Shown piece after piece: positions 823 through 56,686 of a stretch of 64,000 bases of DNA. The stretch is from Thermodesulfobacteriota bacterium (GTDB lineage: Bacteria; Desulfobacterota; Desulfobaccia; Desulfobaccales; 0-14-0-80-60-11). Both the position numbers and the translations under genes were made by a program. Location: contig JBFLZI010000001.1 in the NCBI GenBank assembly GCA_040756315.1, positions 2,461 through 66,460 of the forward strand. Reading direction: 5' to 3'. Every line of letters starts with the position of its first letter. Positions within the stretch are counted from its first letter, which is position 1. The notes under the pieces were generated by a model. The model worked only from the letters and a program-made list of their open reading frames with translations, searched no databases and had not been told where the DNA came from.

Positions 823-1161
823 TTAGTCCTGTCTCCCATAGCACCAAAAAACTGCGGGGATGGTAACGTCACCGGCGGCGGCCACGTCCAGGGTCACTTT
901 GGCGGTCATGGCCCCCGCCACCAGGAGTTCCTTCTCCAGGTTGTGATTCTGGTTTTCGGCCTTGGCCCCGGAATTGTAGAATTCGTAACCGTCCTCATCT
1001 TCCAAGGTCAGGGTGGCGGTAGCGGCAGACCCGGGGATGGTGGGCACTCGCAGGTGCATCAGCCGGACCAGACCTTCCAACACCAGGGGCAAGGAGACCA
1101 CTTGGACCCCGTTCGCAAAGACGAAATTCAGTTTCTTCCTTAAAGCCTGTTCAGCCTTCAT
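823..1161 (-). CDS. hypothetical phage protein
   Basis: 112-aa ORF overlapping the end of the giant ORF by 4 nt. High GC3. No motif recognised. Confidence 0.45.
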   Translation of the reverse strand: MKAEQALRKKLNFVFANGVQVVSLPLVLEGLVRLMHLRVPTIPGSAATATLTLEDEDGYEFYNSGAKAENQNHNLEKELLVAGAMTAKVTLDVAAAGDVTIPAVFWCYGRQD

Positions 1162-4100: not shown

Positions 4101-7100
4101 CAAGATCATCTGATCGCCCCACTCCCGCATGGCTTCCGCCGTCTCCTCCAGGACGGCATAGTCGGCGCTGTATTTCTGCTTCAGGGCGGCCAGGGCGGCC
4201 CGGCTCAATTCCGGATGGGTGCCTTTGATTTCCCCCGGCTCCCGCACCCCAGTTTCCCCGGCCAACTCCAGGTCCCTTTGGGCGGGCATCAACGCGTGGA
4301 AAAGGTCACCGGAGACCTGGGCGAAGGATTCGCCCCGCTTTTGGGCCAGGTCTTTCAGCGGTTCCAGACGTTTCACCAGACTGGGCCCCACGGCCTCGGG
4401 GGCGTCGCCGGTAAAGACCAGCCGGTCCAGCTTTTCATCGAACTCCAGGGTGTCGTGGTAGACGTAATCCCCGCTTATACCCTGGCGCACCCGGCCTTCC
4501 ACCCCCCTGAGAAAACTCAGGTTGTAGGTCACGTTTTCCCCGGCGGGGACCGCAATGCCGGCTTGGGCCGCTTTCTGCGCAACCCGTTCCCAGGCGGCCC
4601 AGCGGTCCACCACCTGGCTGTAAAAATCCTCGGTGAGGCCCTTAAACCCCTCCCAGCCCTGCTTCAGCCTCTCCCGCCAATTCCTGGCCGCCTCCTGGTC
4701 CAGGGCCACCACCTCCCGCTTGAAGCGGTCGATGACCTCCTGGGGCCCTGGGGCTTCTTTGATTTTCGCCCTCGGGGCGATCCCCTCCGGCAATCTTCCC
4801 TTCCGCCCCCAAACCTCCCCGGTCCTCATCTTCCCGAAAACGGCTTCCGCGTCGGGGAAGAAGGCCCGGTAAATTTGACGGAAGAAATTCAAGATTTTCT
4901 GGAAAAGGGTTTCGGGCTGCTTCTCAGGAATCCAGGTTTCATAAGCCCGGGCCGCGGCCTCTTCATTTCCATATTTCCTGAGCACCGCCTGTCTTTCCCG
5001 CTCGGTCAGGGCCAACTCCATGGCGGCATGGAAGACCTCATGGTGCAGGCTTTCGGCCCCCTCCCCCTTGGCCAGGGAAATAAGGTTGGTGCCATTGATG
5101 GTGCGCCATTCCCCGGCAATCACTTCGCCGCGGGCCAATTCGGTCTTGCCATAGGCCGCCAGGGCCTCCGGCGCCACCTGAATGTCCGCGTTTTGCCGCA
5201 CCAGGATGCGGACGCCGTTGGGCAGAGTGACCTCATGCACGTCCGGCATCAGCGCGCTTTCGGTCACCTTGGCCCTGGGCCCGAACGCCGCCTGGATGGT
5301 GTCCTTGGTAACGGTGGGAACCTTGCCTTTTTTCCCGGCAGGACTTATAATTTCTTCAGCCCCTGCTCCCATAGAGGGACGAAAACGCGTAGGCCCTTTA
5401 TGCGTAGGCCTGATGGAACCGTAAACTTTCTCAGGTTCACCAGGGGCGGCTTCCCTCCATCCGGTTAACAACCAAGCTTCTCTTTCTCCGAAACGGTATT
5501 TCGATAAGATGGCAATATGCTTGTCGAAACCAATTTCTACCCGCTGACCACCCTCGGGTCCCGATTCCTTTCGAAATTCTCCTTTGGCGATGACCTCCAC
5601 CATCTTCCTGGCGATGGCTTCACCGTCTTCCCCCTCAGCGTTTCTCTTGGCAATGATATGTGAAACTCCATAGCCTCCCTTAAAATCTTTAGCAGGGTTG
5701 CCGGGTTCGCCCCAATAAAAGGAAATGTCCCCCAAATCATCCCGGCGCATGGCCACGGGCACGTCGGTCTGCTCGGAGATGACCCTCTCCATGGCCGCCG
5801 CGCCCCGGCGCAGGTTTTCGTCCTCTTGTATAGTAAGCCGGGCCTTGGAGATCGCCCGGGGAGTCGCCGCCACTACTGGGCGATGTTTGATGATTTTCTC
5901 AATCACCCCGGGACCGGCCTCGGTAGTGGGAATAAAGAAGCGGGTGTCCCATTGGATTCTTTCAGCGAAGACCCCGGCCCGTCTTAACTCTTCCATGTGA
6001 GCAAAATCCGGGCCCTTTAATTCGATCCGGTCTTCTCCCGAGACCCTGGACCGCTTGATCTCCCAGCCGTTGGCCAGGGTAACGACATAATTGCTATCCA
6101 GAATATTCGTGAAGACCTGTTGCGGAGTGAGCTTGGCGGCGGTGGTGGACTTGGCCCCGAGATTCTGAAGAACTTGGCCAATGACGCGCTCCGGGATGCG
6201 TCGGCCAATAAAACGCTCCCCCTCCCTGGTCTGAAGACGGATTACCCGGGTGTTGCCGGTGAGACGGTCCCAAATGGGCAAGATCGTGCCGGCGATCAGA
6301 TGATGCCGTTCGACTTGCTCTTTTGGGGCCTTGGCGATCTCGGCCTGCCACATCTGCTTGGCTATGGCCCGGTCCTTGATGAGATCCCATTTGCTCTTGT
6401 CCCAGAAATGATAATCTTCTACATCCCGCACGGAACGACTTAACACGCCCCGTAGAGTCCAGTATTGGGTCACTCGTCCGCTTTCCGAAGTGTCGTTCCA
6501 CGATTTAGCTTCCCGGACCCAGATACGGCCACTTCGGACATTCTTGAAGAAGGCTGGTTTGGAGCCGCCAACCTTCTCCGCCTCCTCAAATTCCCTGATT
6601 TTAGTGGGATTGATTTCGTCAACCTCTACATATTTGGTTTCGGCCCCGGTCCTGGGATCGGTATAAACCGTCTGTTCGCTTATCTTTTCAATCCTGCCGC
6701 CGGGATCGGGGCGCAAAGTTTCCATGCCGATGTCCAGGGTGCCCCGACGGGCCGCCACCTCTGCCGCCCGCTCCAATCGTTCCGCAAAAGCCGCAAAAGT
6801 CCGGTTCTGTTCCTGGACCTCCATGCTCAGGAGACGATTAAGAAATTGGGTGATGGGAGGCAATTCCTGGAGCAGATTGCCGTCTTTATCCAGGAGACGC
6901 AACCCTGTCTGCTCCATAAAGGTGCCGATGTTCATCCCCGGGATTTCGCCCCGGTAAAGTTCATAATAGAATTGCCGCAGGGCATCCTTGGCATGAGAAG
7001 CTTCCAGATTGTCCTTGGCCTGGAAAAGCCCGGTGCTGCCGGTCTGTCTTTGGCCCTTGGTCAGGGCCCCCAACTGGTCCAGGCGCCGGGCAATGGAAGA

Positions 7101-10100
7101 GAGAAAGCGTTTCTGTCCGTCTAAATTGGTGGAGACCAGGACATAATGGGGAGCGAAGCGTTGGTTGCTCCGATGGGAGCGTCCCATTTTCTGGACCGCC
7201 ATATCCGCCCGCCAACCCAATTGCACTCCATAGTGAATCCGTTTGCGCTGGTTTTTGAATTCATAGGAAGCGTTGAAACTGCGGCCAGTGCCAGCCATAT
7301 CGGAGAAGACCAGGATTTGCTTCTTGTCAGACAGGAAAGCGCCAATATCGGCCTCCACCTTGGCCCGGCCCCGTTTCTCCAAAACAGTCTCACCCCCGAA
7401 TTTAACCAGACGGCGCTTCCGGCCCGTGGCTTCGGCCACCGCTTCCGGCCCGAAAGTGTTGACCAGCATATCCAAGGGACTATCCGGGACCCGGATGGCT
7501 CCCAACTTTTCCAACAACTCTTCCTTCATGCGGACGGCTTCGGCGTTTTGCACTGGGTTGCCTTGACTATCTTTAACCGCCCGCCATTTTTCGTTGCCCT
7601 CTTCATCCAAGTAAGGTTCAAACTGCGTAGTGGGAAAGGCGTGTTCCACATATTGCATCAGGGCTTCCCGGGGCGTCAGGTCCAGACCGTCCAATTCCTC
7701 TTCGTCCGCCATCCTCGCTAGGCCCCTTTCCTGGGCAGCCTCCAATGTGTTGGTTAACTGGACGAGAACGGCATTGCCCTCGGCCAGGTCCTTCTTTATG
7801 GCTTCCAGGACCGAAGGCATCTGCATAGAGGTGATCACCTGATTGAAAAATCTCTGGTGCGAGCCCCAGAACTGGGAGGCGGCTTTGGCTCTGGCCTGCG
7901 GGCTATTCTCTCCTTCGGTCAACCGGAGGGCTTCATGGATATTCTGCAAAACTACTTGCCAGGCCCGGGCCATCTCATTGTAGATTGCCACCTGATGGTC
8001 GGTGAGATTGTGAACCAAACGGTCATAAGTTACGGTCTGATCCGGCTGGCTGGGCACTTCAAAGGCCAGGGAGCGGGCCAGATAGACCCCCAGGGCCTTC
8101 ATGTCCCGGGCCACCAACTCCATGGCAGCCACTCCGCCACTCTCTATCTCACTGATAAATGCTTCCCGGTTCGGGAAAGGGGTGCCTTCGCCCCACAGGC
8201 CTAAGCGTTCCGCATAGGCCAAGTTTCCTACTTTCGTGGCCCCGGTGGCCGACACATAAACGATGCGCGCCTTGGGCAATTTCTTTTGTAATTCCATGCC
8301 GGCCAAGGCCTTCTGCGAAGGCTTCTTGTAGCCCCGAGCACCTTTTTCACTTCTGCCGCTGCCCATCTCATGGGATTCATCGAAGATCACCACGCCGTCA
8401 AAGTCTTCCCCCAACCACTCGACAATCTGATCCAACCGCCGTTTTCCTTTGACCTCCTCTCCCTTGGGAGCCTGGGCGGCAGATTTCAGAGTGTCGTAGG
8501 TGGTGAAGAGAATGCCCTGAGAGTTCTTAATGTCGCTGTCCGCCTTGATCTTCCCCAAATCAAAAACTAGGTCCGGCTTCCAGCCCACGCCTTCAATGTC
8601 CCGGCGGGCATCCTTAAAGAGGGCGGTGCTTTTGCTAATCCAAGCCGCCTTCTTCCTGCCCTGGTTCCAATTGTCATAGATGATGCCAGCAATTTCGCGG
8701 CCTTTCCCCACCCCGGTGCCGTCGCCGATGAAAAAACCCCGGCGCTGGCCATCGGGCAAGATGTCCTGGTGGGATTGCCCGGCATAGACTACGGCCTCCA
8801 GTTGAGACTCGCTCAATTTGCCGGTGTCGATGACTTCTTTGGGAAGATGGGGTTTATAGGTGGGGGCTGGCGGCTCCACCGCGGCCATGGCCGCGCTTTG
8901 CACCAGCCATCCGGGATGGGGCTGGGCCCCGGAGACTTTTAAACGTTGCGGCTGGTAAGGTTCATAGATTGCATCGGTCAGTTCCCCGGAGGGTCTTGCG
9001 GCCTTCTTTTCTTCTAGTCGGACGGGACCCCGAACTGATCCGGGTATAATCTCGCCGCGCCCAGTCGGCTGTCCAGTTGGTCCACCAATTCCTCCGCCAA
9101 CTCCACTGGGTCTTCCGGCATGAGGTTCGCCTGAAGCCCCGCGTCTCCCTCCGCGCTCTCCTCGAACACCTGCATGACGTTCTCCGGGTTCCAGTTGCCC
9201 ATGGCTTCCACGGTCTCCTTCAGGAAGTGCCACCGGTAAAACTGGCTCAGGTGCAAGGCGTCCTGGGGTGGCCCTTTCACCTTCCCGTTCTCCAGGGCCC
9301 ACTCCAGGAGTTGCAGGACGTGCAGTTGGCCGGGTTCCACGGATTCTCCCGCCCTCTTCAGGGCCTGCTTCGCCAACTGGTTCAGGGGCCGTTCCTGGTT
9401 GAGCTTCTCTCTCTCGTGCCAATACTTGGCGTAGGCGTTCATCTTTTACCCCCTCCAGCAAGGGTATCAGATCTGCAAGCTTCTCAACCGCGCCGACCAC
9501 CGGCTCCCGGGTCGTGGGGCCGGTTTTGTCGATAACCAAAATCTGGTTATCGAAATTCGTGCCATATTTACCATAATTTTTACCACTAACCCCGATATTT
9601 GCAAGAACCTGGTATTCTTTTTTGATTTTCGCCCACCAGGTTGCAAAGGCAGGCTTGTCAAAAGCCATGCCCCGGCCGACGATGGCCACCAGGCGGCCCC
9701 CGGGCTCCAGGCGCTTAAGGGCCTGCTCCAAATGGGTCGCTCCCATCTGGGCCATTCTTTTGCCCAGCATTCGCCCGGCGGTCGCCGAAAAAGGCGGATT
9801 CATCACCACCACCGTGGGGCGCACCTCTTTGGGCAGGATATTATTGAGCTGTTCGGCATTTTCGGTGAAGACCCGGTCAAACCCCATTTCCCGCAGCAGC
9901 TCTGCCCGCCGCGGACTTAATTCGTTGACGATTACCTCTTTGGCCCCGGCATTGTGGGCAAACACCGCCAGCCCCCCTACCCCGGCGCTGGGTTCCAAGA
10001 CCACATCATTCTGGTTGATATTGGCCACCCAACTCACTATGTAGGCCAAGGGAGGAGGAGTGGAAAACTGCTGGAATTCATCCGACTCGCCGGTGCGCCG

Positions 10101-12998
10101 GGTTTGGGTCGGCAATCGGGCAATGAGTCCTTCAAGTTTAACGATCACCTTGGCAGGTTTGTCTGCATGAGGATTGAAGATTTCCGGCTTACTTTGAATA
10201 TATTGATTGACCCCCAACTCCATGGCATCATAGGCATCCTTGGGAGTGTATTTCCCTTCCGCTTGGGTGCCGCCATAGCTTCTGTCGGCCCAAGCGAAAA
10301 GTTCTTGTGGAGTAATTGGATCCTTAGTTAAATCCAAGAATCCTTTAACCACGCCAGCAATGCGCTTATAAGGTGCTCTTGAAGGTTCAGGAACAGTAAC
10401 CGCCTTTTGGGGCGGCGCAATCCCCGGGGGCAAAGCAGCTTTCCGTTTCGGCTCTTCTCTAAAAAGTTCAGCCTGTTTGGTCTCAGGATATTCCTCCATA
10501 ACTTCAAGAGGAACGGCTTTGCCAGCTTTGTGGGCCTGCAATACTTCCTGGCGGTGAAATTCCAGTTTGGCAGCCTCGGGACTATCGAAATAGATCTCGC
10601 CCGTCTCTGGGTTGGTTAGTAAAGGACCATCTTCGCCTCTTTGGATGGTGACCCTTCCCTGAGAGTCCATTCTCCAATTGGCGACCGGTTCCCCCTCCAC
10701 TTCGGAAAAGAACCATCCTTGCTCGTCCTCTTCCTCCCAGGAATCCAGGAATTCATTCTTGCCCATCTGGTAAGGTTGCCGATATTCTTCTTCCGTGCCA
10801 GGTGCAGCAGAGACAGGACCTTCCTCTTCTGTCGGGCCCGGCGGAACCTCGAACTGCTGTAAGAACGCTTCCATCTTCCCCGGCACGGCATAGGCCACCG
10901 TGGACTGATACCGGGGATGCTCCGGGTCTTCTATGTTGTAAAGCAGCAGCCCGGCGTCTTTCATCTGCCCGGCGTAACTCAACTGCTCCGGGGCCACGCC
11001 GTTTTGCTGAGCGGCCACTTGACGGCCCTGCTCAATAAGCTCGGTGGTCAATCCCGGGGCTGCTTCCGGGGCCTTGACAGGCTCTTCAGGGGTAGGGGTA
11101 ATTACTGGCCCCTCCATTTTAGGGGCCTCCACGGGCATCCCAGGGGGTCGTTTTGTCTCCGGGGCGGCCTGTTCCGCCGCCTCTGCCCCCATCACCCCCA
11201 TGGGCGGGGCGGGGCCAGCCGGTTTGGTCGGCTCCGGGACGGCCCTTTCTGGTGAAGGGGGAGCACCAGGAGGTGCCGCCTCTGCCGCCCCCGGAGCCGG
11301 TATTTCCGGTTTTCTTGCCTGTTCCGCCGCTTCTGCGCCGGAGACCCCCAGGGGAGGCTCCACCACGGGCCGGGGACCTCCAAAGGCCGGGGGCAAGGGC
11401 CGCCTAATGGGCCTGCCCTGTTGATCCACCAATGGCGGTCGGGGAGCTTCCGGACGCCCTTCTAGGGCTTCCCGGCCTTCTCGCAGCCCACGTTCTACCA
11501 GTAACTTTTCATAGGCGTTTCGTTCCCAGGGTTGCTTGGCCAAGGCCGCTTCAAACTCATCCGCTGGCCGCAGGGGCCTTCCAGCAGGCCCCAGAATCTC
11601 CGGCGTCCCCGGGGGGGCCGGTTCGGTAATGGCCGGGGGCCTTCCTTCTTCCGGCAATCTCCCTACATACTCATACCCCGGCAGCACTTCTTCCCTGGGT
11701 GCCGGTGGTGTCACCCTCGCTGGTTCCATGGCCAGGGGCTGGGCCATCCCTGCCTGAATGGTGGGACCGGTGCGGTAAATGGGGAAACCTTCCCGGCCTT
11801 CCGGGACGGCGGCTTGCTCCTCTTTAGCTCCCGCCACTGTTGTTGCAATACGCTCTCTTATGGCCCGGGCCGACCGATGCGCGGCCACTCCCGCCCCGCT
11901 GAGGCCCCCCATGGCCGCGCCCACCAGCACCGCTTCCACCACGTTTTCCGTGAGCTTTTGGTCCGGGTCATAGCCCCACTTACGGAAGGCGTTGCCCACG
12001 ATTTCCTGGGCCCCTTCGGTGGTTCCTTCCGTGGCGATGCTGTCCAGAACCTTATGAACCAGGTTTTGACCGTTCTTGCCCCGGAAGATGCGCTCCAGGG
12101 AAAAGGCTTCCAGGCTGCCGGCCACGATGCCTTTGCCCAGTTCCACCGCCACCCGGCGCCCCCAACTGATAGGCTTGTCCGGGTGCTCTTTTTCCCATTG
12201 GCGCAGGTTGGCTTCCGCCTCCGCTGCTTCCAGGCCCATGGCCGCGGCATAACCGCTGCGGGTGTAGATTTTGTTGATCTTGCCGGCAATCTGGGCCGCT
12301 TCTTCCGACGTCTGGCCCCCTTTTAAGGCCTTCCCCAGACCCATCACTTTTTTGGCCAGGGCCCCCAGGCCAGCCCCATAAAGGAAATATTCGCCGATGC
12401 TCCAGGCTGCTTCCGGCAGACGGGCCGCCCAAAAATGAGGGTTTTTGATGGTTTCGGCCACCTGCCCGGCCACTTCCCCCGGGGCCTCCAGGATCCGGTG
12501 CAGTTCCACCTGGGATTCCGCCGCCTTGGAAGGGCGTAATTCGGGAGATTCCTGGATGGCCTCCAGGGCCTCAATGGGACGAGTCAAGGCGCGCCGCACG
12601 GGACCGATATTCAGGACATCTCCGGCGATGATCTTGGCGGCTTGCAGGGGGAATTTAACCACCTCCAGCGCGCCCCGTCCCACCCCAGCAGCAAATTCCC
12701 CGGCTACCGTCCTCTCCGGCACCGGTTCCTCCAGGCGCAACCGCCTGAGCGCCCCCTCATAGATTTCCTGGGAGCGTCTTTGCTCTTCCGGCGACAAGGC
12801 CTCAAAGGGGACGGGGGCCTCTCCCGGGGGAAGATCCCACCTGGTGGGGGCCGGTTTGGCCAAGCCCGGTTCTCCTTCGGGTATCGCTGGGGCCGCGAGA
12901 GCAATCGAAACAGGCTTCTCCCTCTCCGGTTCCGGAGGTGGAGGAGTCCAAAAGTTCCGGATTCTTTCCAACTCGCTTTCAAAAAGTTCCGGGGACAT
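1158..12998 (-). CDS. giant polyvalent protein (methyltransferase + SF2 helicase + two zincin motifs), 3,946 codons as written; see frame anomaly at 9014-9453
   Basis: Uninterrupted ORF. Motifs: VLEPSAGVGG / NPPF, GDGTGVGKGR / DESH / HRSNQ, HEVFH, HELGH. Glycine-zipper-like N-terminal region and Pro/Ala/Glu-rich linkers. Last gene of the virion operon. Confidence 0.65.
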   Translation of the reverse strand: MSPELFESELERIRNFWTPPPPEPEREKPVSIALAAPAIPEGEPGLAKPAPTRWDLPPGEAPVPFEALSPEEQRRSQEIYEGALRRLRLEEPVPERTVAGEFAAGVGRGALEVVKFPLQAAKIIAGDVLNIGPVRRALTRPIEALEAIQESPELRPSKAAESQVELHRILEAPGEVAGQVAETIKNPHFWAARLPEAAWSIGEYFLYGAGLGALAKKVMGLGKALKGGQTSEEAAQIAGKINKIYTRSGYAAAMGLEAAEAEANLRQWEKEHPDKPISWGRRVAVELGKGIVAGSLEAFSLERIFRGKNGQNLVHKVLDSIATEGTTEGAQEIVGNAFRKWGYDPDQKLTENVVEAVLVGAAMGGLSGAGVAAHRSARAIRERIATTVAGAKEEQAAVPEGREGFPIYRTGPTIQAGMAQPLAMEPARVTPPAPREEVLPGYEYVGRLPEEGRPPAITEPAPPGTPEILGPAGRPLRPADEFEAALAKQPWERNAYEKLLVERGLREGREALEGRPEAPRPPLVDQQGRPIRRPLPPAFGGPRPVVEPPLGVSGAEAAEQARKPEIPAPGAAEAAPPGAPPSPERAVPEPTKPAGPAPPMGVMGAEAAEQAAPETKRPPGMPVEAPKMEGPVITPTPEEPVKAPEAAPGLTTELIEQGRQVAAQQNGVAPEQLSYAGQMKDAGLLLYNIEDPEHPRYQSTVAYAVPGKMEAFLQQFEVPPGPTEEEGPVSAAPGTEEEYRQPYQMGKNEFLDSWEEEDEQGWFFSEVEGEPVANWRMDSQGRVTIQRGEDGPLLTNPETGEIYFDSPEAAKLEFHRQEVLQAHKAGKAVPLEVMEEYPETKQAELFREEPKRKAALPPGIAPPQKAVTVPEPSRAPYKRIAGVVKGFLDLTKDPITPQELFAWADRSYGGTQAEGKYTPKDAYDAMELGVNQYIQSKPEIFNPHADKPAKVIVKLEGLIARLPTQTRRTGESDEFQQFSTPPPLAYIVSWVANINQNDVVLEPSAGVGGLAVFAHNAGAKEVIVNELSPRRAELLREMGFDRVFTENAEQLNNILPKEVRPTVVVMNPPFSATAGRMLGKRMAQMGATHLEQALKRLEPGGRLVAIVGRGMAFDKPAFATWWAKIKKEYQVLANIGVSGKNYGKYGTNFDNQILVIDKTGPTTREPVVGAVEKLADLIPLLEGVKDERLRQVLAREREAQPGTAPEPVGEAGPEEGGRIRGTRPTARPATPGVGPGEREGERATPGRLAPEPVLPVALPEGDRGSHGQLEPGERHAGVRGERGGRRGASGEPHAGRPSGVGGGIGGPTGQPTGRGEIIPGSVRGPVRLEEKKAARPSGELTDAIYEPYQPQRLKVSGAQPHPGWLVQSAAMAAVEPPAPTYKPHLPKEVIDTGKLSESQLEAVVYAGQSHQDILPDGQRRGFFIGDGTGVGKGREIAGIIYDNWNQGRKKAAWISKSTALFKDARRDIEGVGWKPDLVFDLGKIKADSDIKNSQGILFTTYDTLKSAAQAPKGEEVKGKRRLDQIVEWLGEDFDGVVIFDESHEMGSGRSEKGARGYKKPSQKALAGMELQKKLPKARIVYVSATGATKVGNLAYAERLGLWGEGTPFPNREAFISEIESGGVAAMELVARDMKALGVYLARSLAFEVPSQPDQTVTYDRLVHNLTDHQVAIYNEMARAWQVVLQNIHEALRLTEGENSPQARAKAASQFWGSHQRFFNQVITSMQMPSVLEAIKKDLAEGNAVLVQLTNTLEAAQERGLARMADEEELDGLDLTPREALMQYVEHAFPTTQFEPYLDEEGNEKWRAVKDSQGNPVQNAEAVRMKEELLEKLGAIRVPDSPLDMLVNTFGPEAVAEATGRKRRLVKFGGETVLEKRGRAKVEADIGAFLSDKKQILVFSDMAGTGRSFNASYEFKNQRKRIHYGVQLGWRADMAVQKMGRSHRSNQRFAPHYVLVSTNLDGQKRFLSSIARRLDQLGALTKGQRQTGSTGLFQAKDNLEASHAKDALRQFYYELYRGEIPGMNIGTFMEQTGLRLLDKDGNLLQELPPITQFLNRLLSMEVQEQNRTFAAFAERLERAAEVAARRGTLDIGMETLRPDPGGRIEKISEQTVYTDPRTGAETKYVEVDEINPTKIREFEEAEKVGGSKPAFFKNVRSGRIWVREAKSWNDTSESGRVTQYWTLRGVLSRSVRDVEDYHFWDKSKWDLIKDRAIAKQMWQAEIAKAPKEQVERHHLIAGTILPIWDRLTGNTRVIRLQTREGERFIGRRIPERVIGQVLQNLGAKSTTAAKLTPQQVFTNILDSNYVVTLANGWEIKRSRVSGEDRIELKGPDFAHMEELRRAGVFAERIQWDTRFFIPTTEAGPGVIEKIIKHRPVVAATPRAISKARLTIQEDENLRRGAAAMERVISEQTDVPVAMRRDDLGDISFYWGEPGNPAKDFKGGYGVSHIIAKRNAEGEDGEAIARKMVEVIAKGEFRKESGPEGGQRVEIGFDKHIAILSKYRFGEREAWLLTGWREAAPGEPEKVYGSIRPTHKGPTRFRPSMGAGAEEIISPAGKKGKVPTVTKDTIQAAFGPRAKVTESALMPDVHEVTLPNGVRILVRQNADIQVAPEALAAYGKTELARGEVIAGEWRTINGTNLISLAKGEGAESLHHEVFHAAMELALTERERQAVLRKYGNEEAAARAYETWIPEKQPETLFQKILNFFRQIYRAFFPDAEAVFGKMRTGEVWGRKGRLPEGIAPRAKIKEAPGPQEVIDRFKREVVALDQEAARNWRERLKQGWEGFKGLTEDFYSQVVDRWAAWERVAQKAAQAGIAVPAGENVTYNLSFLRGVEGRVRQGISGDYVYHDTLEFDEKLDRLVFTGDAPEAVGPSLVKRLEPLKDLAQKRGESFAQVSGDLFHALMPAQRDLELAGETGVREPGEIKGTHPELSRAALAALKQKYSADYAVLEETAEAMREWGDQMILQPLLQVGFIDQARYEDIKAKNQFYVPFKRLLDDMETYISAHASAAGVKGRVIKKIKGSERQILDPLEMWMELAYKAQFAYARNKVYRGLYVTAQYAEMEDVKEIPAKFVPVDQTLKQEIDEKLRPQIEKLCQAIGVNVRMLYTLGGRVLGRFKAGMRREAGGAYGPEEREIEVRFATTEKVLSHELGHAIDHLANLEDLLINRGTPEMKRELRKIADQRIGEAQVSDYFRRYVRKKEEQVAEFVNRFLTDRETARTLAPNATAVFEKFLQGNEELKPLLDFKPTAQRQLREFYHKIWVRSPLPPEPGCLPYYRDGLMRWLKVPPDLYQAAVNMMPGDIGILMRVAKLPADTLRAGAILVPEFSLGRNPVRDIMQAWLFSRFGFNPAYWWRDTFKLLAKDEQAREFHRQWEAGGGELATLAQAFAKSNRVTADQILNPGKKIRYFAHPIQALRFASAYLENMTRFSIYKQAREKGLSHAEAIHEARRTTLDYSRVGGHPAVRYLGMIIPFFNASIQGIDKMASELAGPNRKAVLKRLTMLTAISLLVWAFASRDKRYKELEDWEKNYFWHLPLGEDGPMLRIPKPFEAGILFGSVPERMMEWALGQKPDMAATMKAVWEAAMPEVVPTIARPLLEMKANYDYFRGRPIEDVAMQRLPVSMRAKPWTTETAKAFSRHFGEPLGISPVMMEHFIRTLGGGLGANYFLPGVDLALRKAGVWEDIPKPAQDAIQQIWGVRAFFTRTPTGNRAKSVNDFFEHYQAAVQADQGWKVLWQQGKAGDLDKFLKEHPEAIFARVARLEMAQMGKLRKERDTIYAAKNLTPEEKQKKLDKIDAQLVVIARRANTFMDPAAAEKVGMPSRSLPGKGHKPIDAKQYYQVAAEATERAYRKLQPSFPRLSEMEAEERQRRIAGAIRTEREETARGLTAVSPRDLLKPFRPGALWDRPTKEEREQAFHIFGGFLKVPAPWMTGFRPSKEHQEARR
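3525..3554 (-). other. zincin HExxH motif 2 (SHELGHAIDH) in the giant ORF
   Basis: HELGH read directly. Confidence 0.45.
5031..5048 (-). other. zincin HExxH motif 1 (LHHEVFHAAMELAL) in the giant ORF
   Basis: HEVFH read directly. Context resembles the metallopeptidase modules of phage/plasmid polyvalent proteins. Confidence 0.45.
7050..8990 (-). other. strawberry-notch/SNF2-like superfamily-2 helicase module of the giant ORF
   Basis: Walker A GDGTGVGKGR (8700-8729), DESH box (8358-8384), C-terminal lobe with MGRSHRSNQ (7161-7175). N-terminal HPGWLVQSAAMAAVEPP segment is typical of this helicase family. Confidence 0.75.
9014..9442 (-). CDS. 142-aa ORF nested in the +1 frame of the giant ORF (helical, unknown function)
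   Basis: ATG 6 nt after GGAGGGGG. An in-frame TAA sits two codons upstream of the ATG (one AAG codon between). G/C at the third codon position is 27/30 in this frame versus 9/30 in the giant frame over the same 30 codons. The balanced protein (MNAYAKYWHEREKLNQ...) contrasts with G/P/R filler in the giant frame. Confidence 0.55.
   Translation of the reverse strand: MNAYAKYWHEREKLNQERPLNQLAKQALKRAGESVEPGQLHVLQLLEWALENGKVKGPPQDALHLSQFYRWHFLKETVEAMGNWNPENVMQVFEESAEGDAGLQANLMPEDPVELAEELVDQLDSRLGAARLYPDQFGVPSD
9510..10090 (-). other. N6-adenine DNA methyltransferase module of the giant ORF
   Basis: Motif I VLEPSAGVGG (~9975-10003) and motif IV NPPF (9789-9800) in gamma-class order. Confidence 0.75.
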
Positions 12999-19238: not shown

Positions 19239-20204
19239 TTAAGCTGCGGCTTTTACGCCGAATTCGGCATTATTCACTTCAGATGGAGTCCAGGCCGCGC
19301 TAGTGTCGGGGTTGGTGGCCCAGATATTGGCTAATGCTGTGGGCGTGGTGGCGGGCACCGCCTTGTCTCCGCTGAAATAATTGCTACCCCCAGACCGCAC
19401 CGCCAGTTGCAGGTTTTGGGGCGTGGGTGCGCCCTCCTTCACCGCTCGGGCCTGCACTTGGACGCATTTGACCTCTTCGATGGAGCCGCTTAGGTCGCTG
19501 AAGGTGTAAAGGTCTATCTCATTAGAGACGTTAGTGGAGACATAATCCGTGTCCGAGGCGGGCACTTCATCCACGCAGTCCCAATTCGATCCGGAGGAGG
19601 GATCCCATTGGGTGGAATTGCCCGCCGCGGTTGGCTTGAGGGCTTGAATTTTGGTGTCTCCCGGAAACCCAGCGTCATCAATGATCACGTCGTCGAAGTT
19701 TCCATAAAAAGAAGACGAATAAGCATAAACTCTGATGTTGTCTATGCTGGTAGGGCCGTCGGTCGTGTCTCCTGAGAAATCAATATCTAGAATGCCGTTT
19801 ATCTTTATCTGAAACACTCCCGCCGAATTATCCGGCTTAAAACGAGCTTCGATCAGGACCACGTCATTCTGGCCAAATGTCTGCGAGCCAGTAGCCAACA
19901 CGGTGGCGGTGCCGCGCAAGGTTTGAATTACATTGCCACTTTGCTGGATGGAGCCGATGACCGTGGTGCCGTTGCGGAACTCAAAGATTCGGGAATTGCC
20001 GAGCGAAACTGATTCCGGCTTGTAGCGAAAAGCTACCCACAATTCGCTCTTTGCTGAAGGTAAATTTTTGAGGGCATAAGCACCGCTCATACCTCTAATA
20101 TGATATGAACCATCAATAGGATTTGTGCTGTAAATAGTAAAGGTAGCTGCATCCCACAAATCCAACTGCCCGGCTTCAAACCCGTCGATAAATATCCGTG
20201 CCAT
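19239..20204 (-). CDS. beta-sandwich tail/receptor-binding-like protein
   Basis: 321 aa, Ser/Thr/Asn/Gly-rich beta-type sequence with lower GC than its neighbours, located in the fibre cluster. The fold assignment (LamG/ConA-like) is a guess. Confidence 0.45.
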   Translation of the reverse strand: MARIFIDGFEAGQLDLWDAATFTIYSTNPIDGSYHIRGMSGAYALKNLPSAKSELWVAFRYKPESVSLGNSRIFEFRNGTTVIGSIQQSGNVIQTLRGTATVLATGSQTFGQNDVVLIEARFKPDNSAGVFQIKINGILDIDFSGDTTDGPTSIDNIRVYAYSSSFYGNFDDVIIDDAGFPGDTKIQALKPTAAGNSTQWDPSSGSNWDCVDEVPASDTDYVSTNVSNEIDLYTFSDLSGSIEEVKCVQVQARAVKEGAPTPQNLQLAVRSGGSNYFSGDKAVPATTPTALANIWATNPDTSAAWTPSEVNNAEFGVKAAA

Positions 20205-20218
20205 GGCTGCACCTCTAC

Positions 20219-20620
20219 TTAAGCGCAGGTGATCTTGGGGACCACCTTAATGCCTTTGCCGTCCTCAATATTTAGGGGCGAATCCAGGTGCTCCAGGGCC
20301 AGCAGTTTCCCGCTGGTGCCGCTTTGCACCGTGCAGATGAAATAGCCGTAAATATTGCCCCAGGCACCCCCCTGAGCCAAAAAAGTCTGCTCCAGATAAA
20401 GAGCGTAATCATCAATGATGGTCCAATAGCCCCGGGTCAGGGCTTTGCGGGCATAGCCGAAACCCGCCGGTTCGTTCATATCCGCCAGAGTGACGGTTTC
20501 CGCCGGTTCTTCGGTATTCTTGTAAAGACCCAGCCAGAGCGTCCCGTCCACCGGCTGCGCGCCCAAGAGGATGTTGAGAACCCGGTTCTCTCCTTCGTTC
20601 AGCCATTTGGCAATAGACAT
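20219..20620 (-). CDS. small structural protein, paralog family member A
   Basis: 133 aa. Shares GEN..L, LGLY, EP.G.GYAR..L and AWGN(I/V)YG(Y/W)FIC..SGTSG blocks with 20633-21031. Confidence 0.6.
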   Translation of the reverse strand: MSIAKWLNEGENRVLNILLGAQPVDGTLWLGLYKNTEEPAETVTLADMNEPAGFGYARKALTRGYWTIIDDYALYLEQTFLAQGGAWGNIYGYFICTVQSGTSGKLLALEHLDSPLNIEDGKGIKVVPKITCA

Positions 20621-20632
20621 ATCAGGCCCCTC

Positions 20633-21031
20633 TTAGCTGGCGGTGACTTTAGCTGTCGCTTTGACGCTCCCGCCGTCCGGCACGTTATAGGGTCCGTCGG
20701 TAAACTGGCCCACGGCAAAAACATTGCCCGATGTGCCCGAGGCGACATTGCAGATGAACCAGCCGTAAACATTGCCCCAGGCGGCCCCAGAGCAGGAAAA
20801 GGTCTTCTGCACGTGGGTGGCTATCGATCCCGCCAAGCTCCAGTCGGCGTCCTGCAACTGAATCCGGGCGTAACCACCGCCCGAGGGCTCGGTTAAGCCA
20901 GTCAGTTGGATGTCTTCCGCCGGCTCAGAAGTGGGTGCGGTATAGAGCCCCAGATAAAAGCTGGGCCGGGTGGCCCCCTTCAGAAAGCAATCCAGGATGG
21001 TGTTCTCACCAGCATCCGTCCATTTAGGCAT
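20633..21031 (-). CDS. small structural protein, paralog family member B
   Basis: 132 aa. Clear paralog of 20219-20620. Confidence 0.6.
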   Translation of the reverse strand: MPKWTDAGENTILDCFLKGATRPSFYLGLYTAPTSEPAEDIQLTGLTEPSGGGYARIQLQDADWSLAGSIATHVQKTFSCSGAAWGNVYGWFICNVASGTSGNVFAVGQFTDGPYNVPDGGSVKATAKVTAS

Positions 21032-21248
21032 GGTCGTTCTCCTTGTTTATGAATCTGTCCAGGTCATCCCGGGCGATGCGGGCGCCGCGGGAGGACCCGT
21101 AGGCGGCCAACAATCCCCGGCGGATATAGCGATAAACGGTGCGCCGGGATTTGCCCAGCAAGGCGGCCACTTCATCCGGGCGAAAACTCCGCTTGGCGGG
21201 CAATTCCACTTCCCGCCTCAGAGGTCCCTGGCATAGTCCTTCAGCCAT
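21024..21248 (-). CDS. excisionase/MerR-type helix-turn-helix DNA-binding protein
   Basis: 74 aa. FRPDEVAALLGKSRRTVYRYIRRGLL...ARIARDDLDRFI matches the excisionase-family HTH pattern. Overlaps the subtilase gene end by 31 nt. Confidence 0.6.
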   Translation of the reverse strand: MAEGLCQGPLRREVELPAKRSFRPDEVAALLGKSRRTVYRYIRRGLLAAYGSSRGARIARDDLDRFINKENDHA

Positions 21249-22633
21249 AGCCGTATCTCGATATTAGTGGCTAGGGGATACCAGTTCTTGATGAGAGCGG
21301 CGGCGGCGGATACATGGGGACAGGCCGCCGAAGTGCCGCTGGCCGTCATGTATCTGTTCCCGGACCCAGGCACCACATAGTCTGAGTAAGTAAATCCGGC
21401 CCAAGCCCCGGTTATTTTCTTCCCCGGTGCTGACAACTCCACTTCTTCCCCTCGGGAAGAAAAATCAGCCACGATCTCATCCACGTCCACCGCGGCCACG
21501 GCAATAACTGAAGCATATTTCGCCGGATAATCCACGGTATTGGGGTCGGGGCCGGAGTTGCCCGCCGACGCCACCACCAGGCAACCGGCATACCAGGCGG
21601 CATCGCAAGCCGCCTTTAAGACATCTGAGCTCTGAGGACCTCCTACACTCAGGCTGAGAATGTCCATGCCGTGGGTTCTGGCCCAGTCGATTCCCGCGGC
21701 AATATTGGCAAAGCTTCCTGATCCTTTCGAATCCATGACCTTGACCGCATATAACTCTATTCCCGGAGCGATGCCCCGGTAACTGCCGGCGATAGCGTTG
21801 TGCTGCGCGGCCACAATAGAGCAGCAATAGGTGCCGTGATCATGATCGTCGGCGGGATTATCATTGCCGCCCAGGATGTTGTAGCCCCCCTTATAAACGC
21901 TGACGCCATTCTTCCAGAAACACTCGTGCTCTTTCTTGATGCCGGTATCAATGACGCAGACTTTTATTCCCTGGCCATAGATTTCTTTGGCCCAGGCAAA
22001 GATGGGGTTGATGCGGCTCACCCCCCAATCGGTATTGACGCCACTGGGGTTATAGGTGGGAATTTCCCCGGCCATCATGATATGAGCCTCCGGCTCGATG
22101 ACCACCTTCTCCACCAGGGGGTTCTTACGCATCTCCTCAATGGCCGCCGGCTCTAAGTCCGTGACGAAGACGCGGTTGTCGAAACCCATGGTCCATTTAC
22201 GCCGGCCGTCATAATCCCGGGCCAGGTTATTGGACATGGCCATGATTTCCTTGGGCAGACCGATGACCACCTCCGGAATCTTGAGATAGACGGTCACCGG
22301 GATCTTTTTGGGAGCGTCCAAAAATCCTTGGGCGCAATCGTAAGTCTTGACCAGGTCCCGGGCGATCTCCCAGGCTCGGCCAAGAACGTCCGTCTCTGGG
22401 CTGTTCCTGGTAGTGGTCTCCCCCGCTTCCATGGCCTTGATCAGCTTGACGATTTCGTCATAGACCTCCGGCTTTTGCAGGCCGATCTCGGCCATCATCA
22501 GATGGAAGTTTTTGTGATTGATCTTGCGGACCGCCAGGTTATACAGGGTCTTGTCCGCTTGCTTCAAGGCCCGGAGAAACTGGTGGAAGTTCAATTCTGT
22601 CCGGGATTCGCACTTTTCTTCAGGTAGCAGCAT
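21218..22633 (-). CDS. subtilisin-like serine protease (peptidase S8) with N-terminal extension
   Basis: Catalytic D (VCVIDTGI), H (HDHGTYCCS), oxyanion N (SAGNSGP) and S (SGTSAACPHVSAAAAL) in S8 order. A propeptide-like segment precedes them. No signal peptide seen. Confidence 0.8.
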   Translation of the reverse strand: MLLPEEKCESRTELNFHQFLRALKQADKTLYNLAVRKINHKNFHLMMAEIGLQKPEVYDEIVKLIKAMEAGETTTRNSPETDVLGRAWEIARDLVKTYDCAQGFLDAPKKIPVTVYLKIPEVVIGLPKEIMAMSNNLARDYDGRRKWTMGFDNRVFVTDLEPAAIEEMRKNPLVEKVVIEPEAHIMMAGEIPTYNPSGVNTDWGVSRINPIFAWAKEIYGQGIKVCVIDTGIKKEHECFWKNGVSVYKGGYNILGGNDNPADDHDHGTYCCSIVAAQHNAIAGSYRGIAPGIELYAVKVMDSKGSGSFANIAAGIDWARTHGMDILSLSVGGPQSSDVLKAACDAAWYAGCLVVASAGNSGPDPNTVDYPAKYASVIAVAAVDVDEIVADFSSRGEEVELSAPGKKITGAWAGFTYSDYVVPGSGNRYMTASGTSAACPHVSAAAALIKNWYPLATNIEIRLWLKDYARDL

Positions 22634-22635
22634 CT

Positions 22636-23565
22636 TCAGCCGTCCCAGTTATGGGAGTAAAACTCCGTGTAAATCCACCGGGGCTGCGGATAAGTCCAAC
22701 CCTTGAACCGGTCATTAAATACCTTGCTTAAAGCCGTCTGATAGTAAGTGCCGGGGTAGTCAATCTCGAAATTCATGGGGTCATAGCCAGTAGCAAAGAT
22801 AGTTTTGGGAATGAACCCTTCTTTTTGCTTGCCGATGGCGATGGCCTGGGCTTCCCGCTCTTCCGTCCAAATCCCCGCCAGGATTTTGATCCAGCTGGTC
22901 ATGGGACCCGGCAGGCCCACGGAACCGACCCGGAAGATGACCATCAGAGGCCCCACCTTGATGAGCCAGTCCCCGTAGAAGTTGACGATGGTGCCCAACT
23001 GAAACTCCCGGAAACCGAAAAGCCGCCTCTGTTTCTCGTTCAGCTTGAGGTCTTGGCCGTCCGGTTCCTTGCAGGCTGCGTCCATGGGGCCGTATTCCTT
23101 GGGATCGCTGACCAGGTAGTGAATCTCATGCGGCTTCCCCGGAGTCGGTGAAGTCATGGCGCCCGTGGCATACTGAAAGACCTTCATCTTAAAGATGTCC
23201 AGACACCTTTTAGGCCGCTTCCCTTCCTGGTGGCCCACCACAAACTTGGGAGTGCCGGATTCCAACAATACCTTGACCTTCTGCCCCGTCCGGAAGGCCC
23301 GGGCCGCCCCTTTCAGGGCGTTGTTGCCCCGCTTGGTGGCCACCGTGGCGTCATAATGGTCTTTCTTGCAGTGATATAGAATGGGAATGTTCTTCCCGCT
23401 GACTTCCCCCTCCACCTCGCAGGTGTCGTTCAGGGTGAAGGGGTCGGTCTTCTCGTAACCAAAGTCCTTGATGGTGCCCTCTTTATAGGTGGTCCGGTAG
23501 ACGTCCCCCAGTTCGTCATGGTCCAGGCGATAGTCCCGGTTGCCTTTTTGCTGCACCTTGATCAT
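22636..23565 (-). CDS. tail-associated protein, unknown function
   Basis: 309-aa ORF with 4-nt overlaps on both sides. Confidence 0.5.
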   Translation of the reverse strand: MIKVQQKGNRDYRLDHDELGDVYRTTYKEGTIKDFGYEKTDPFTLNDTCEVEGEVSGKNIPILYHCKKDHYDATVATKRGNNALKGAARAFRTGQKVKVLLESGTPKFVVGHQEGKRPKRCLDIFKMKVFQYATGAMTSPTPGKPHEIHYLVSDPKEYGPMDAACKEPDGQDLKLNEKQRRLFGFREFQLGTIVNFYGDWLIKVGPLMVIFRVGSVGLPGPMTSWIKILAGIWTEEREAQAIAIGKQKEGFIPKTIFATGYDPMNFEIDYPGTYYQTALSKVFNDRFKGWTYPQPRWIYTEFYSHNWDG

Positions 23566-24257
23566 GCCGTGCTCAGGGTCAGCTTCAGGGTCACCTTGAT
23601 CTTCTGGCCGACGGTGTCGATCTTCTTGGACTCGGTGAAGGCCTCCAGGAACATCAGTTGCTTATGGGAGTCTCCGCCGAAGAGGGTGCCGGTATTGGAC
23701 ACCGCCTTAGTGCCGCCCCCCACCTGAAGGTTTTCATTGTCCTGGAATGCCGTGGCACTTTGGTTCTTGACGAAAAGGTAGCCCGCCGCATCTCCTGTCC
23801 AGGCTCCGGAGATGACTACCACTCCGGTAACTACCGCCGTTGCCCCGGAAGTGGCGCCGGTGATGGTGTCCCCTACCCTGATTTCGCTGGACCCCTGGTC
23901 AAAGGGCACCACCCGGATAATTCCAAACTGGCCATAGACGGTATTGCCGTCCGCCACGTCGTTGGCGTTGAACTCCCATTCCAGGGCGGCATTGTGATAC
24001 TGGGCCTGGGCCTTGCCGTCCGAATTTGAGCCCAAAAACCACTTGTTGGCCGTGAGGCCGTTTTCTACGATCTCGTTGGCCAGGCTCTTGCGGGCGTAGC
24101 CCCGTCCCCCACCGGAAGGCATCTCCTGGATGTTCAGGAAGGTGGTACCGCCGTCGGGGGAGACCACGTTCTTGTAAAGGCCCACCTCCAGGGCGGCCAT
24201 CTGAAGAATGCTTTTCAGCATCTCTAGTTCGCCTAAATTAGGAACGTAAATTGTCAT
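23562..24257 (-). CDS. structural protein, paralog family member C with inserted domain
   Basis: Start moved to the ATG at 24257 (ATGA overlap with the upstream stop). Shares GELEML, VGLYKN and GGGRGYARKSL blocks with 20219-21031. Carries an extra RVGDTITGATSGATAVVTG segment. Confidence 0.55.
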   Translation of the reverse strand: MTIYVPNLGELEMLKSILQMAALEVGLYKNVVSPDGGTTFLNIQEMPSGGGRGYARKSLANEIVENGLTANKWFLGSNSDGKAQAQYHNAALEWEFNANDVADGNTVYGQFGIIRVVPFDQGSSEIRVGDTITGATSGATAVVTGVVVISGAWTGDAAGYLFVKNQSATAFQDNENLQVGGGTKAVSNTGTLFGGDSHKQLMFLEAFTESKKIDTVGQKIKVTLKLTLSTA

Positions 24258-25570
24258 GACAGGACTCCTTCTCCGGAGATAATCACGCCGCCCCGGCTGG
24301 TATGCCTTAAAGGAGCGGGAACAAAGATGCGCCCCCGGGAAAAAACGGCCTGCAATTCCGGGTCGGGGGTGGATTTCGGGGTGCCATAAAGAGTAAAGAG
24401 GGTCAAAGGCCATCCTTGCCGCAGGAAATGACAGGCCGCGCCCCGGGACATGGGCCAGAGCCTCAGCCGGTTTTCCGTGAGATGCACCAGATGGCCGTTC
24501 TGGGTGCCCACCACCATGCCGGTGGGGGAAGCCCAGACCGGAGACGGCACTTGGGAGAGCTTCCTGGAAATTTCGTAGCCCGGCCCCTCCACCAAGGCAT
24601 AGGTGAGAGTGCCGGGGATGGCCCCGCCCCCCACTTCGTCCAGGCCCATTTTGTGGGGATCAAAGCCTTTAAGAAGCCAGGTGGTCTTCAGGGAATTGAC
24701 GAAGATGCCCTCGTTTATGGGGGCCAACAGGACCAAATCTTCCGTGAAGGGGAAGGTGCTGGCCTCCCGGAACTGCTCCAGGCGGAATTCCCGGCTGAAG
24801 TAAAGTTTCTTCCCCGCGATGCCCAAGATCCGGCCCGCGGCCGCGAACATGTCAGTGAAGGCCGGAGGGGGTATAACGTCAAGGGTGGGCAGAGGTTGGG
24901 CGTAGTAAGGCTGGTTGATCGCCCCGCTCTCCACCGGGGCCAGGAAGAAGTCCGCTCCGTCGGCCTGGGTGATCCAGCACAGGGTGCCGGCCGGTTGCTC
25001 CACTAGTTCAATGCCCATGGAGTCACCATGGAACTCCAGGGTGGTCACCGGGCCGTTTCCCCCCAGACGCGTCCCTTCATAATGGGTGTAGCAGAGACTA
25101 TAGCGTCCAGGGGGCAGGTCCCCGGGCACCAGGTTGACCCGGGGCCGCGGCGGTAAGGGTAGGCCCCAGGAGCGCACGGTGTTGGCAGCCGGATCATACA
25201 CGCCGGTCCAGTAGCCGTTGGAGAGATAGACCAGGGAATTCGCCTCCAGGTAAACCATGGGAGCCTGGTCCGGCCCTCCCACCGGGGCCACTTCCACCGG
25301 GGTGTTCCCCAGGAGCCGGAACAGGGCCGGGCCACCGTCAGCGCCTCTAGCCACATAGAGGGTGACGCCGCCGTCCCATAGAGAATGGCACCCCACTCCC
25401 GGCGTCAGCTTCCGGTAACCGCCCCGGGGTCTTAAAACCCCGTCGCCCGCCAGGTCGGCGTTCAAAATCACCCGGGGCGTGAGAAACCGCCGGTCATCCA
25501 GCAGGATCGCCGGAGTGGCAGGCAGGTTGTTCATGCCCTTAAAACCGTAAATGCGGAAAGGTTTGGCCAT
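24254..25570 (-). CDS. tail protein (beta-rich), unknown function
   Basis: 438-aa ORF downstream of the adaptor-position gene. Confidence 0.5.
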   Translation of the reverse strand: MAKPFRIYGFKGMNNLPATPAILLDDRRFLTPRVILNADLAGDGVLRPRGGYRKLTPGVGCHSLWDGGVTLYVARGADGGPALFRLLGNTPVEVAPVGGPDQAPMVYLEANSLVYLSNGYWTGVYDPAANTVRSWGLPLPPRPRVNLVPGDLPPGRYSLCYTHYEGTRLGGNGPVTTLEFHGDSMGIELVEQPAGTLCWITQADGADFFLAPVESGAINQPYYAQPLPTLDVIPPPAFTDMFAAAGRILGIAGKKLYFSREFRLEQFREASTFPFTEDLVLLAPINEGIFVNSLKTTWLLKGFDPHKMGLDEVGGGAIPGTLTYALVEGPGYEISRKLSQVPSPVWASPTGMVVGTQNGHLVHLTENRLRLWPMSRGAACHFLRQGWPLTLFTLYGTPKSTPDPELQAVFSRGRIFVPAPLRHTSRGGVIISGEGVLS

Positions 25571-56638: not shown

Positions 56639-56686
56639 CAGGGTGACACCTTGACATACCCCCCCGCCTCAGTCCATAATCTCTGC

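Follow-up and report, generated by a model that had tools for sequence, protein, structure and literature searches.

A 64,000-nucleotide stretch of contig JBFLZI010000001.1 from a sulfate-reducer-type bacterium of the Thermodesulfobacteriota (hereafter the window, meaning the whole stretch analysed) carries what appears from its gene content to be an integrated temperate podophage resembling Ralstonia phage GP4. Among the tail-fibre genes of this element lies, on the minus strand (21218..22633), a gene for a 471-amino-acid (aa) S8 family protease, predicted to be a self-activating pro-subtilisin zymogen. We favour, with a probability of roughly 0.4, the reading in which this latent zymogen acts together with duplicated fibre proteins, outside the cell, on a protein of the host surface. 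Phages are known to carry tail enzymes that cut sugars and tail enzymes that cut the cell wall, and little is understood of how they cross layers of protein; in 2025, structural work on a phage that penetrates the surface layer (S-layer) called the penetration step unknown and found no enzymatic domain (PMC11948020). A subtilisin kept in one tail-fibre slot across a lineage of temperate podophages, and equipped with a zymogen switch, would be a concrete candidate for such crossing. If the enzyme is virion-borne, it would represent a route through protein envelopes that is undescribed for tailed phages; if it is instead a protease of fibre maturation, it would represent a new class of phage morphogenetic protease.

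Catalytic residues and domain anatomy of the S8 protein

The open reading frame (ORF) starts with ATG, and its translation has the exact sequence of the NCBI entry 'MAG: S8 family peptidase [Thermodesulfobacteriota bacterium]' (P0001, 74-kb contig). The Pfam model Peptidase_S8 (PF00082) matches residues 220-468 with E=2.4e-52 and 178 bits against a cut-off of 21.8, which is far above chance level, and PHROG 3677 ('protease') matches the protein with E=4e-69. The triad order Asp-His-Ser is kept, with D229 (codon 21947-49) in VIDTG, H266 (21836-38) in HGT, and S435 (21329-31) in GTSAACP; the oxyanion-hole asparagine, N359 (21557-59), lies within AGNSG, and all four residues are invariant in the alignment of 32 homologues. 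A first-pass annotation, made from the sequence alone, had described an S8 family protease with a full D/H/N/S set, a propeptide-like segment in the N-terminal region, and no signal peptide. Each of these points was borne out: the motifs VCVIDTGI, HGTYCCS, AGNSGP, and GTSAACPHV are all found in the translation, both the family profile and the structural model align to an unprocessed pro-subtilisin, and no hydrophobic stretch was found in the first 70 residues. Such a stretch (first ~40 residues) is present in 1/32 homologues (P0019, KD 2.05). By sequence and model, the 471-aa ORF is a bona fide S8A subtilisin, intact and predicted to be catalytically competent.

The protein begins with a family-specific helical domain (residues 1-108; 22310..22633, minus strand), which consists of five helices in the AlphaFold models (predicted local distance difference test, pLDDT, 84-88) and ends in an invariant YxCxxGF motif (Y98, C100, G103). 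A Foldseek search of the PDB with this domain gave no match (best E=5.5). In an exhaustive HMMER scan of 1.84 billion representative proteins only 8 clusters contained it: the full-length matches P0122, P0035, and P0123 belong to the S8 proteins, four others are short pieces of 85-223 aa, and the weakest, P0128, lacks an S8 domain; a word-indexed search gave just one fragment. Within the 116 loci collected here, the domain was not found in any other ORF and is confined to the S8 family, of which one short-form subclade (P0062, P0063, L004, L085) lacks it. The following segment, ~residues 109-190 (22064..22309, minus strand), is assigned as an I9-type propeptide by profile alignment and by fold match to pro-subtilisins. 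The Pfam I9 model itself gave no score on it, and the likeness of fold and sequence was seen via the profile and the model: the alignment of the family profile to unprocessed pro-subtilisin E (PDB 3whi) begins at residue 122 and takes in the propeptide (E=3.8e-86), and the AlphaFold model (pLDDT 88) superposes best on the same structure, and also on pro-Tk-subtilisin, with a template-modelling (TM) score of 0.83. The propeptide ends in a conserved A-x-I-[M/L] junction, A-H-I-M in the window protein where subtilisin has A-H-A-Y, and is followed by a conserved IPxYNP linker. The catalytic domain itself (residues 191-471; 21221..22063, minus strand) contains D229, H266, N359, and S435, and its model shares 39-40% identity with BPN' and Carlsberg at a root-mean-square deviation (rmsd) of ~1.6 Å; compared with BPN', Carlsberg, and Savinase, the predicted structure has a target TM of 0.85-0.90 and an rmsd of 1.5-2.0 Å. 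It is ~20 residues shorter at its C-terminus than BPN', with the profile alignment stopping at residue 254/275. The residues at the S1 and S4 pocket positions differ between lineages, and the junction stays hydrophobic. Sequence and model together identify the S8 protein as a predicted self-activating pro-subtilisin zymogen.

The comparison with known subtilisins shows what is shared and what is particular to the phage protein. With S8A pro-subtilisins that have an I9 propeptide (subtilisin E, BPN', Carlsberg, pro-Tk-subtilisin) it has in common the catalytic motifs, the propeptide fold, and the hydrophobic P1 residue. Unlike them, it lacks a signal peptide, has the additional 108-residue helical domain and a longer, conserved IPxYNP linker, ends ~20 residues earlier, and is encoded in a phage late operon. 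Intracellular subtilisin proteases (ISPs) also have no signal peptide; however, between the two only the phage protein has an I9-like propeptide. In ISPs the place of this propeptide is taken by a short extension at the N-terminus bearing a LIPY/F motif, which IPxYNP recalls only loosely. The S8 proteins of cultured phages (such as Tsamsavirus gp135 and the 'subtilase' of Bacillus phage BMBtp16) are 29-37% identical over the catalytic domain, cover only about half of the query, and lack the helical N-terminal domain; their genes have early or metabolic genes as neighbours, or are flanked by lysis genes and the integrase, and are not in a tail module, so that they are no equivalents of the gene described here.

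Four S8 alleles carry inteins exactly in the catalytic motifs. In P0122 the intein splits the His motif after HG and before T, and in P0060 and L087 (L087:3812-5983) a full-length intein follows GT so that the catalytic Ser is the +1 residue, with a LAGLIDADG domain detected in P0060. A mini-intein occupies the same GT|S site in L085 (L085:4406-5983). As a rule, inteins survive at highly conserved sites in strongly selected genes, and their placement here suggests that S8 is conserved and under selection. Subtilisins that lack a signal peptide and are predicted to be self-activating can also be drawn from this family, as can inteins that use a catalytic Ser as the +1 residue.

The gene slot and its link with the Gp80 pair

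About 60 full-length S8 homologues (~470 aa, 40-62% identity) were found in metagenomes. The same slot, formed by a p309-like gene, S8, and two Gp80-like genes, recurs in ~17 distinct contigs from several subclades with 42-62% protein identity, so that homologous phages do keep the gene in the tail module, a point which the first-pass annotation had raised for checking. The order adaptor, p438-like, p283-like, p309-like, S8, (helix-turn-helix, HTH), Gp80-like, Gp80-like, p321-like was found in all contexts retrieved via the protease (L001-L007, L069, L070, and the P0062 contig). These contexts are biased, with S8 as the bait, and a profile search of metagenomes and genomes with p438, the nozzle-like tail protein, served as a marker independent of S8. 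Among p438 matches with enough downstream DNA, S8 occupies the slot in L021, L064, and the contigs of L001, L002, and L005, and other genes occupy it in L022, L024, L043, L048, L065, L033, L054, L014, L057, and the virus MetMV. In neighbour-joining trees built from p438, S8-positive loci are intermixed with S8-lacking ones, with a minimum of 4-6 state changes in 100/100 bootstrap replicates, which indicates that S8 belongs to an exchangeable block of the fibre region and is not randomly placed cargo.

These data bear directly on the view that the gene came from the host as cargo (a moron), or belongs to a system of defence or lysogenic conversion, and contributes nothing to the virion or to infection. 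The S8 genes of cultured Bacillus phages do lie in cargo or early regions, the generic PADLOC 'subtilase' model matches the window protein with E=4.6e-26, there is a weak match to IetS, and an HTH gene adjoins the protease. However, the slot has been kept across deep divergence (42-62% identity), the guanine-cytosine (GC) content of S8 equals that of its neighbours, no promoter or terminator signal above chance was found around it, and the HTH gene is optional in relatives. The S8 domain is shared with IetS of the IetAS defence system, but here the IetS score is negligible (E=5e-4), no IetA-like ATPase partner is present, and the context is one of structural genes; a secreted conversion factor would need a signal peptide, which the protein does not have. 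The first-pass annotation had named host-derived homologues with no conserved position as what would speak against its reading, and what was found is a conserved slot, a composition like that of the neighbours, and no regulatory signal of the gene's own. We regard cargo as very unlikely. A defence assignment by IetS, or by MADS mad1 for the HTH gene, was dropped, with matches that are generic or weak, no partners, and neighbours without PADLOC matches.

The S8-lacking relatives share TerL, portal, p267, adaptor, p438, and the ejection-like proteins p404, p388, and p375 at the identities seen among S8-positive loci. For TerL, portal, and the capsid-like p267 these are 42-69%, the S8-positive range, and all three are present in L022, L024, L043, L048, and L065, from which S8 is absent. 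Since head and ejection genes are thus shared by relatives without it, S8 is not a prohead or general virion maturation protease. A prohead (capsid) protease in an unusual position might be considered since the window scans revealed no recognisable prohead protease. In addition to the shared head genes, it is opposed by the location outside the portal-capsid interval and by the subtilisin fold, which is not a known prohead protease fold, and many podophages mature without any protease; of all the alternatives considered, we hold this to be the least probable. The earlier remark that the gene is not in the portal-scaffold-capsid position holds, as fibre genes surround it and the portal-like gene is ~9 kb upstream. 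General processing of tail or injected proteins, which the first-pass annotation had offered as one option, is unlikely in view of the nozzle-like and ejection-like proteins that S8-lacking relatives share at the same identity.

The closest association of the protease is with the Gp80-like fibre proteins. Gp80a (132 aa; 20633..21031, minus strand) matches Pfam PF23140 with E=6e-11 and is homologous to the 'fibre I' protein gp80 of GP4, which matches the same model. Gp80b (133 aa; 20219..20620, minus strand; PF23140 E=4.3e-07) is 42% identical to Gp80a. By a Gp80 hidden Markov model (HMM), every S8-positive locus has two strong Gp80 copies (150-220 bits) adjoining S8, or three in L007, and the S8-lacking relatives of the p438 set have no Gp80 copy. 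The reverse search, in which viral contigs were scanned with the Gp80 profile, added the S8-positive loci L076-L078, L081, L082, and L085-L087, all with two Gp80 genes; in L077 S8 sits between them. It also revealed ~25 loci with a strong Gp80 but without S8, most of them in unrelated phages and two (L075, L092) within the lineage, and these are single-copy with the sole exception of L091. The proposal that Gp80 needs S8 was dropped on account of these loci. Because S8 always occurs with the Gp80 pair, and Gp80 often without S8, the dependence is asymmetric: it is S8 that needs the duplicated fibre protein. The asymmetry fits a passenger enzyme that needs the fibre, and not a fibre that needs the enzyme. 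In GP4, gp80 dimers are reportedly strung along a chain-like fibre on a 'rope protein', and two Gp80 paralogues would suggest a heterodimer. S8 co-occurs, moreover, with a short form of p309 (~290-350 aa).

The same association can be read in another way, which is the main rival to the favoured reading, namely that S8 is a cassette-specific assembly or maturation protease that works in the infected cell, outside the finished virion, and trims or activates a Gp80 paralogue, the short p309, or the 'rope' protein. The strict co-occurrence and adjacency with the Gp80 pair and short p309 speak for it, as do the absence of a signal peptide, which fits a cytoplasmic enzyme, the late-operon expression expected from the gene context, and the inteins, which suggest a needed function. 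However, Gp80 of the same subfamily (40-61% identity) is encoded as a single gene in the ~25 S8-free loci, and GP4 assembles fibre I without S8. Compared with the Pfam model or GP4 gp80, Gp80a and Gp80b show no additional stretch at either terminus for a protease to remove, and the enzyme is nearest to degradative subtilisins of broad specificity, with pocket residues that vary by lineage. To our knowledge, the dedicated phage maturation proteases described so far have other folds, which also counts against this proposal. We consider a maturation role possible but doubtful.

The remaining genes around the protease complete the picture of a virion module. Directly upstream of S8 lies the tail protein gene p309 (22636..23565, minus strand), whose N-terminal 110-220 residues are common to longer (357-537 aa), variable proteins in S8-lacking relatives; this pattern of sharing is that of a tail-fibre anchor, which p309 would be by sequence. 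Further upstream, p438 (24254..25570, minus strand), the nozzle-like conserved tail protein, matches phrog_8040 (E=3.4e-21) and, as a profile, the PDB entry 26fb_K 'structural protein' (E=4.9e-28). Between them, p283 (23562..24257, minus strand) has an N-terminus with a weak Gp80 HMM match, a distant Gp80-like domain which is also seen at L005:7600-8001 and would bring the Gp80-type paralogues of the module to three. Its true start is probably the Met at 24257; the mechanically called ORF (23562-24413) overlaps p438 by 160 nucleotides (nt) from a start that is probably wrong, and homologues align from residue 53 on. Pfam, PHROGs, and PDB sequence searches with p309, p283, and the long p309 variants found nothing. 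Downstream of the fibre cassette, p321 (19239..20204, minus strand) is a conserved virion-module protein by synteny and by its matches to phrog_6368 and phrog_2448; Pfam and PDB sequence searches with it gave no match.

In the interval between S8 and Gp80a lies an excisionase/MerR-like HTH_17 gene (21024..21209, minus strand; Pfam E=1.1e-14), which gives a generic match to the MADS mad1 model. Its mechanical start is at 21248, but since homologues align from residue 14, the GTG at 21209, 8 nt after the protease stop, is the probable start; at its other end the gene shares 8 nt with the start of Gp80a. L001, L002, and L006 have this gene, and L003-L005, L007, L021, and L064 do not. The first-pass annotation had placed the protease between tail genes translationally coupled to it on both sides. 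Upstream this holds, with the p309 stop TGA separated by 2 nt from the S8 ATG; downstream, the immediate neighbour is not a tail gene but the HTH_17 gene. The annotation's statement that no prohead protease or endolysin is recognisable also agrees with the HMM scans of most window ORFs, in which neither was found; if the arrangement follows that of phage GP4, genes for lysis may be located past the left window edge. Judged by its context, S8 is probably transcribed with the late structural operon.

Place of action and possible substrates

In the favoured reading, the protease would fold in the cytoplasm on its I9 propeptide and cut itself at the A-H-I-M junction. The complex of propeptide and enzyme would stay latent, and the assembling phage would thereby be spared. 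The complex would leave the cell with the virions, most likely docked to a chain-like Gp80a/b fibre, or otherwise by plain release at lysis. After loss of the propeptide, the enzyme, now a protein 'depolymerase', would digest proteins of the S-layer, outer membrane, or matrix and so aid adsorption or spread. The more specific version, in which a latent complex is carried on a heterodimeric Gp80a/b chain fibre, is switched on extracellularly, and digests a proteinaceous surface layer during adsorption, is put forward only tentatively.

Several observations can be cited in support of an extracellular role. The closest solved relatives of the S8 protein are degradative extracellular subtilisins (39-40% identity, rmsd 1.6 Å), and the gene is located in the exchanged receptor-binding region, between the fibre-anchor-like p309 and the Gp80 fibre genes. 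S8-like domains found inside cyanophage baseplate and tail-fibre proteins provide a precedent. Likeness to extracellular subtilisins, location in a receptor-binding cassette, the Gp80 asymmetry, variable S1/S4 pockets, and the tail-protein precedents would together support the proposal. The virion-borne enzyme against a protein surface layer, which the first-pass annotation had suggested, is compatible with all findings and would be favoured by the structure of the cassette, and we place an extracellular 'protein depolymerase' somewhat ahead of a protease of cassette maturation. There are similarities to the virion depolymerase tailspikes and to peptidoglycan hydrolases of the tail such as phi29 gp13, namely a variable receptor-binding cassette, late expression, and an enzyme suited to extracellular work. 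Unlike depolymerase tailspikes, the protein is a separate zymogen polypeptide and not a domain of a trimeric beta-helix spike, and its attachment to the virion is only proposed; the target proposed here is an ordinary protein, whereas known virion enzymes act on polysaccharide or peptidoglycan. In two loci of the short-form subclade type, the gene that follows the Gp80 pair (L085:6792-8564, L087:6792-8558) encodes a right-handed beta-helix with a CBM5/12 module. This product is, by its predicted domains, a classical depolymerase-type tailspike, and a glycan-directed enzyme and a protease would then coexist in the short-form tail module.

A number of points weigh against the extracellular proposal. 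Both the virion location of S8 and its substrate are inferred, and an S-layer on the host is a supposition. The helical domain matches no known tail-anchor domain in the fold search of the PDB or among the 1.84 billion representatives, and, because it is missing in the short-form subclade with the same synteny, it is no universal anchor. Autoprocessing would uncouple the mature enzyme from its N-terminal part, so that retention on the virion would need a further contact. S8 is absent from GP4, which is the one phage with Gp80 fibres whose structure has been studied. It is also worth considering that the loci are metagenomic, that the trees are neighbour-joining only, and that several of the S8-positive loci were found with S8 or Gp80 as bait. 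One candidate for the N-terminal part was also rejected: the first 200 residues do not correspond to GP4 gp81, encoded upstream of gp80 (hhalign probability 0.1%).

Another possibility is that the protease is a packaged and ejected effector, or that it acts in trans to cut the giant polyvalent protein encoded at the end of the structural operon (3946 aa; 1158..12998, minus strand) into working parts, either inside the capsid or once injected, or to degrade host defence proteins. By Pfam domains the giant protein contains a Strawberry-notch-type helicase (AAA_34/Helicase_C_4), a PBECR1 nuclease, and LPD38, with a weak Rossmann-type match (ADH_zinc_N) below the cut-off, and its C-terminal region resembles the DarB-like protein of GP4. 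Iyer et al. propose an embedded zincin peptidase as the usual self-processing device of polyvalent proteins (PMC5512222). No embedded peptidase was detected in the giant protein of the window, and giants without an embedded zincin peptidase are present in every S8-positive contig that reaches the end of the operon (the window, L013, L015, L016, L070), which would leave room for a protease acting in trans. However, MetMV and GP4 have homologous giants (LPD38 region), also without an embedded peptidase, and no S8 in their genomes. Seven genes and 8 kb separate the giant ORF from S8, which belongs to the fibre cassette; the presence of S8 tracks the Gp80 duplication and not the ejection genes, which have equal identity in S8-lacking relatives. 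The idea of S8 as a stand-in for an embedded zincin peptidase was dropped, as S8-positive and S8-lacking giants alike are without one. The suggestion of the first-pass annotation that the protease processes this polyprotein-like ORF gains nothing from these data, and an effector or trans-acting role of this kind is unlikely.

The prophage and its further genes

The element is, on its gene content, an integrated GP4-like temperate podophage. Its layout mirrors that of Ralstonia phage GP4, with TerL, portal, a capsid-like protein, an SU10-type adaptor, a nozzle-like protein, and fibres, and continues with four ~400-aa proteins, the giant polyvalent protein, a cI-like gene, RecT/YqaJ, and integrase. 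GP4 (Gervaisevirus) is likewise a temperate podophage with an SU10-type adaptor, Gp80-family fibres, ejection-like proteins, a giant DarB-like polyvalent protein, integrase, and RecT, but it has one gp80 gene and no S8. Similarity to GP4 at the BLAST level is confined to the C-terminus of the giant protein. A search of cultured phages for DNA nearly identical to 20 kb of the element gave no match, nor did tblastn of Gp80a against cultured phages. The prophage end is marked by a tyrosine integrase (56651-57883); beyond it, up to position 64000, lie host genes for acetolactate decarboxylase, cytochrome bd oxidase subunits I and II, and a metallophosphoesterase. The window as a whole contains no tRNA gene. 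A second, short tyrosine-recombinase-like ORF (198 aa; 44989-45585, plus strand) is located inside the prophage.

Several further genes deserve mention. An HNH endonuclease gene (29210-29830, minus strand) lies between the p351 gene and that of the capsid-like p267. These two genes are adjacent in relatives such as L006, in which the capsid-like protein is longer (323 aa), and the arrival of the HNH gene may have changed the capsid-like gene at its 5' end. The large terminase (33899-35317, minus strand) shows a weak C-terminal Amidase_2 match (E=8e-4) that is probably spurious. Within the prophage, the plus-strand gene at 37091-39103 encodes a 670-aa protein with a nucleotide cyclase domain, partial matches to Pycsar cyclase (PycC) models, and a weak GAF-like N-terminal match below the Pfam cut-off; it may be defence or signalling cargo, and no effector partner was recognised. 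Finally, 'Methanosarcina virus MetMV' (L012/L066, MK170447) shares with the lineage the nozzle-like protein (32% identity), the ejection-like proteins, and the giant LPD38 protein. The virus is assigned an archaeal host and is described as detected in hydrocarbon-polluted environmental samples (PMC7164591). Elsewhere in the lineage, members are found integrated into contigs of Thermodesulfobacteriota/Deltaproteobacteria or binned with them, and the host assignment of MetMV may deserve re-examination.

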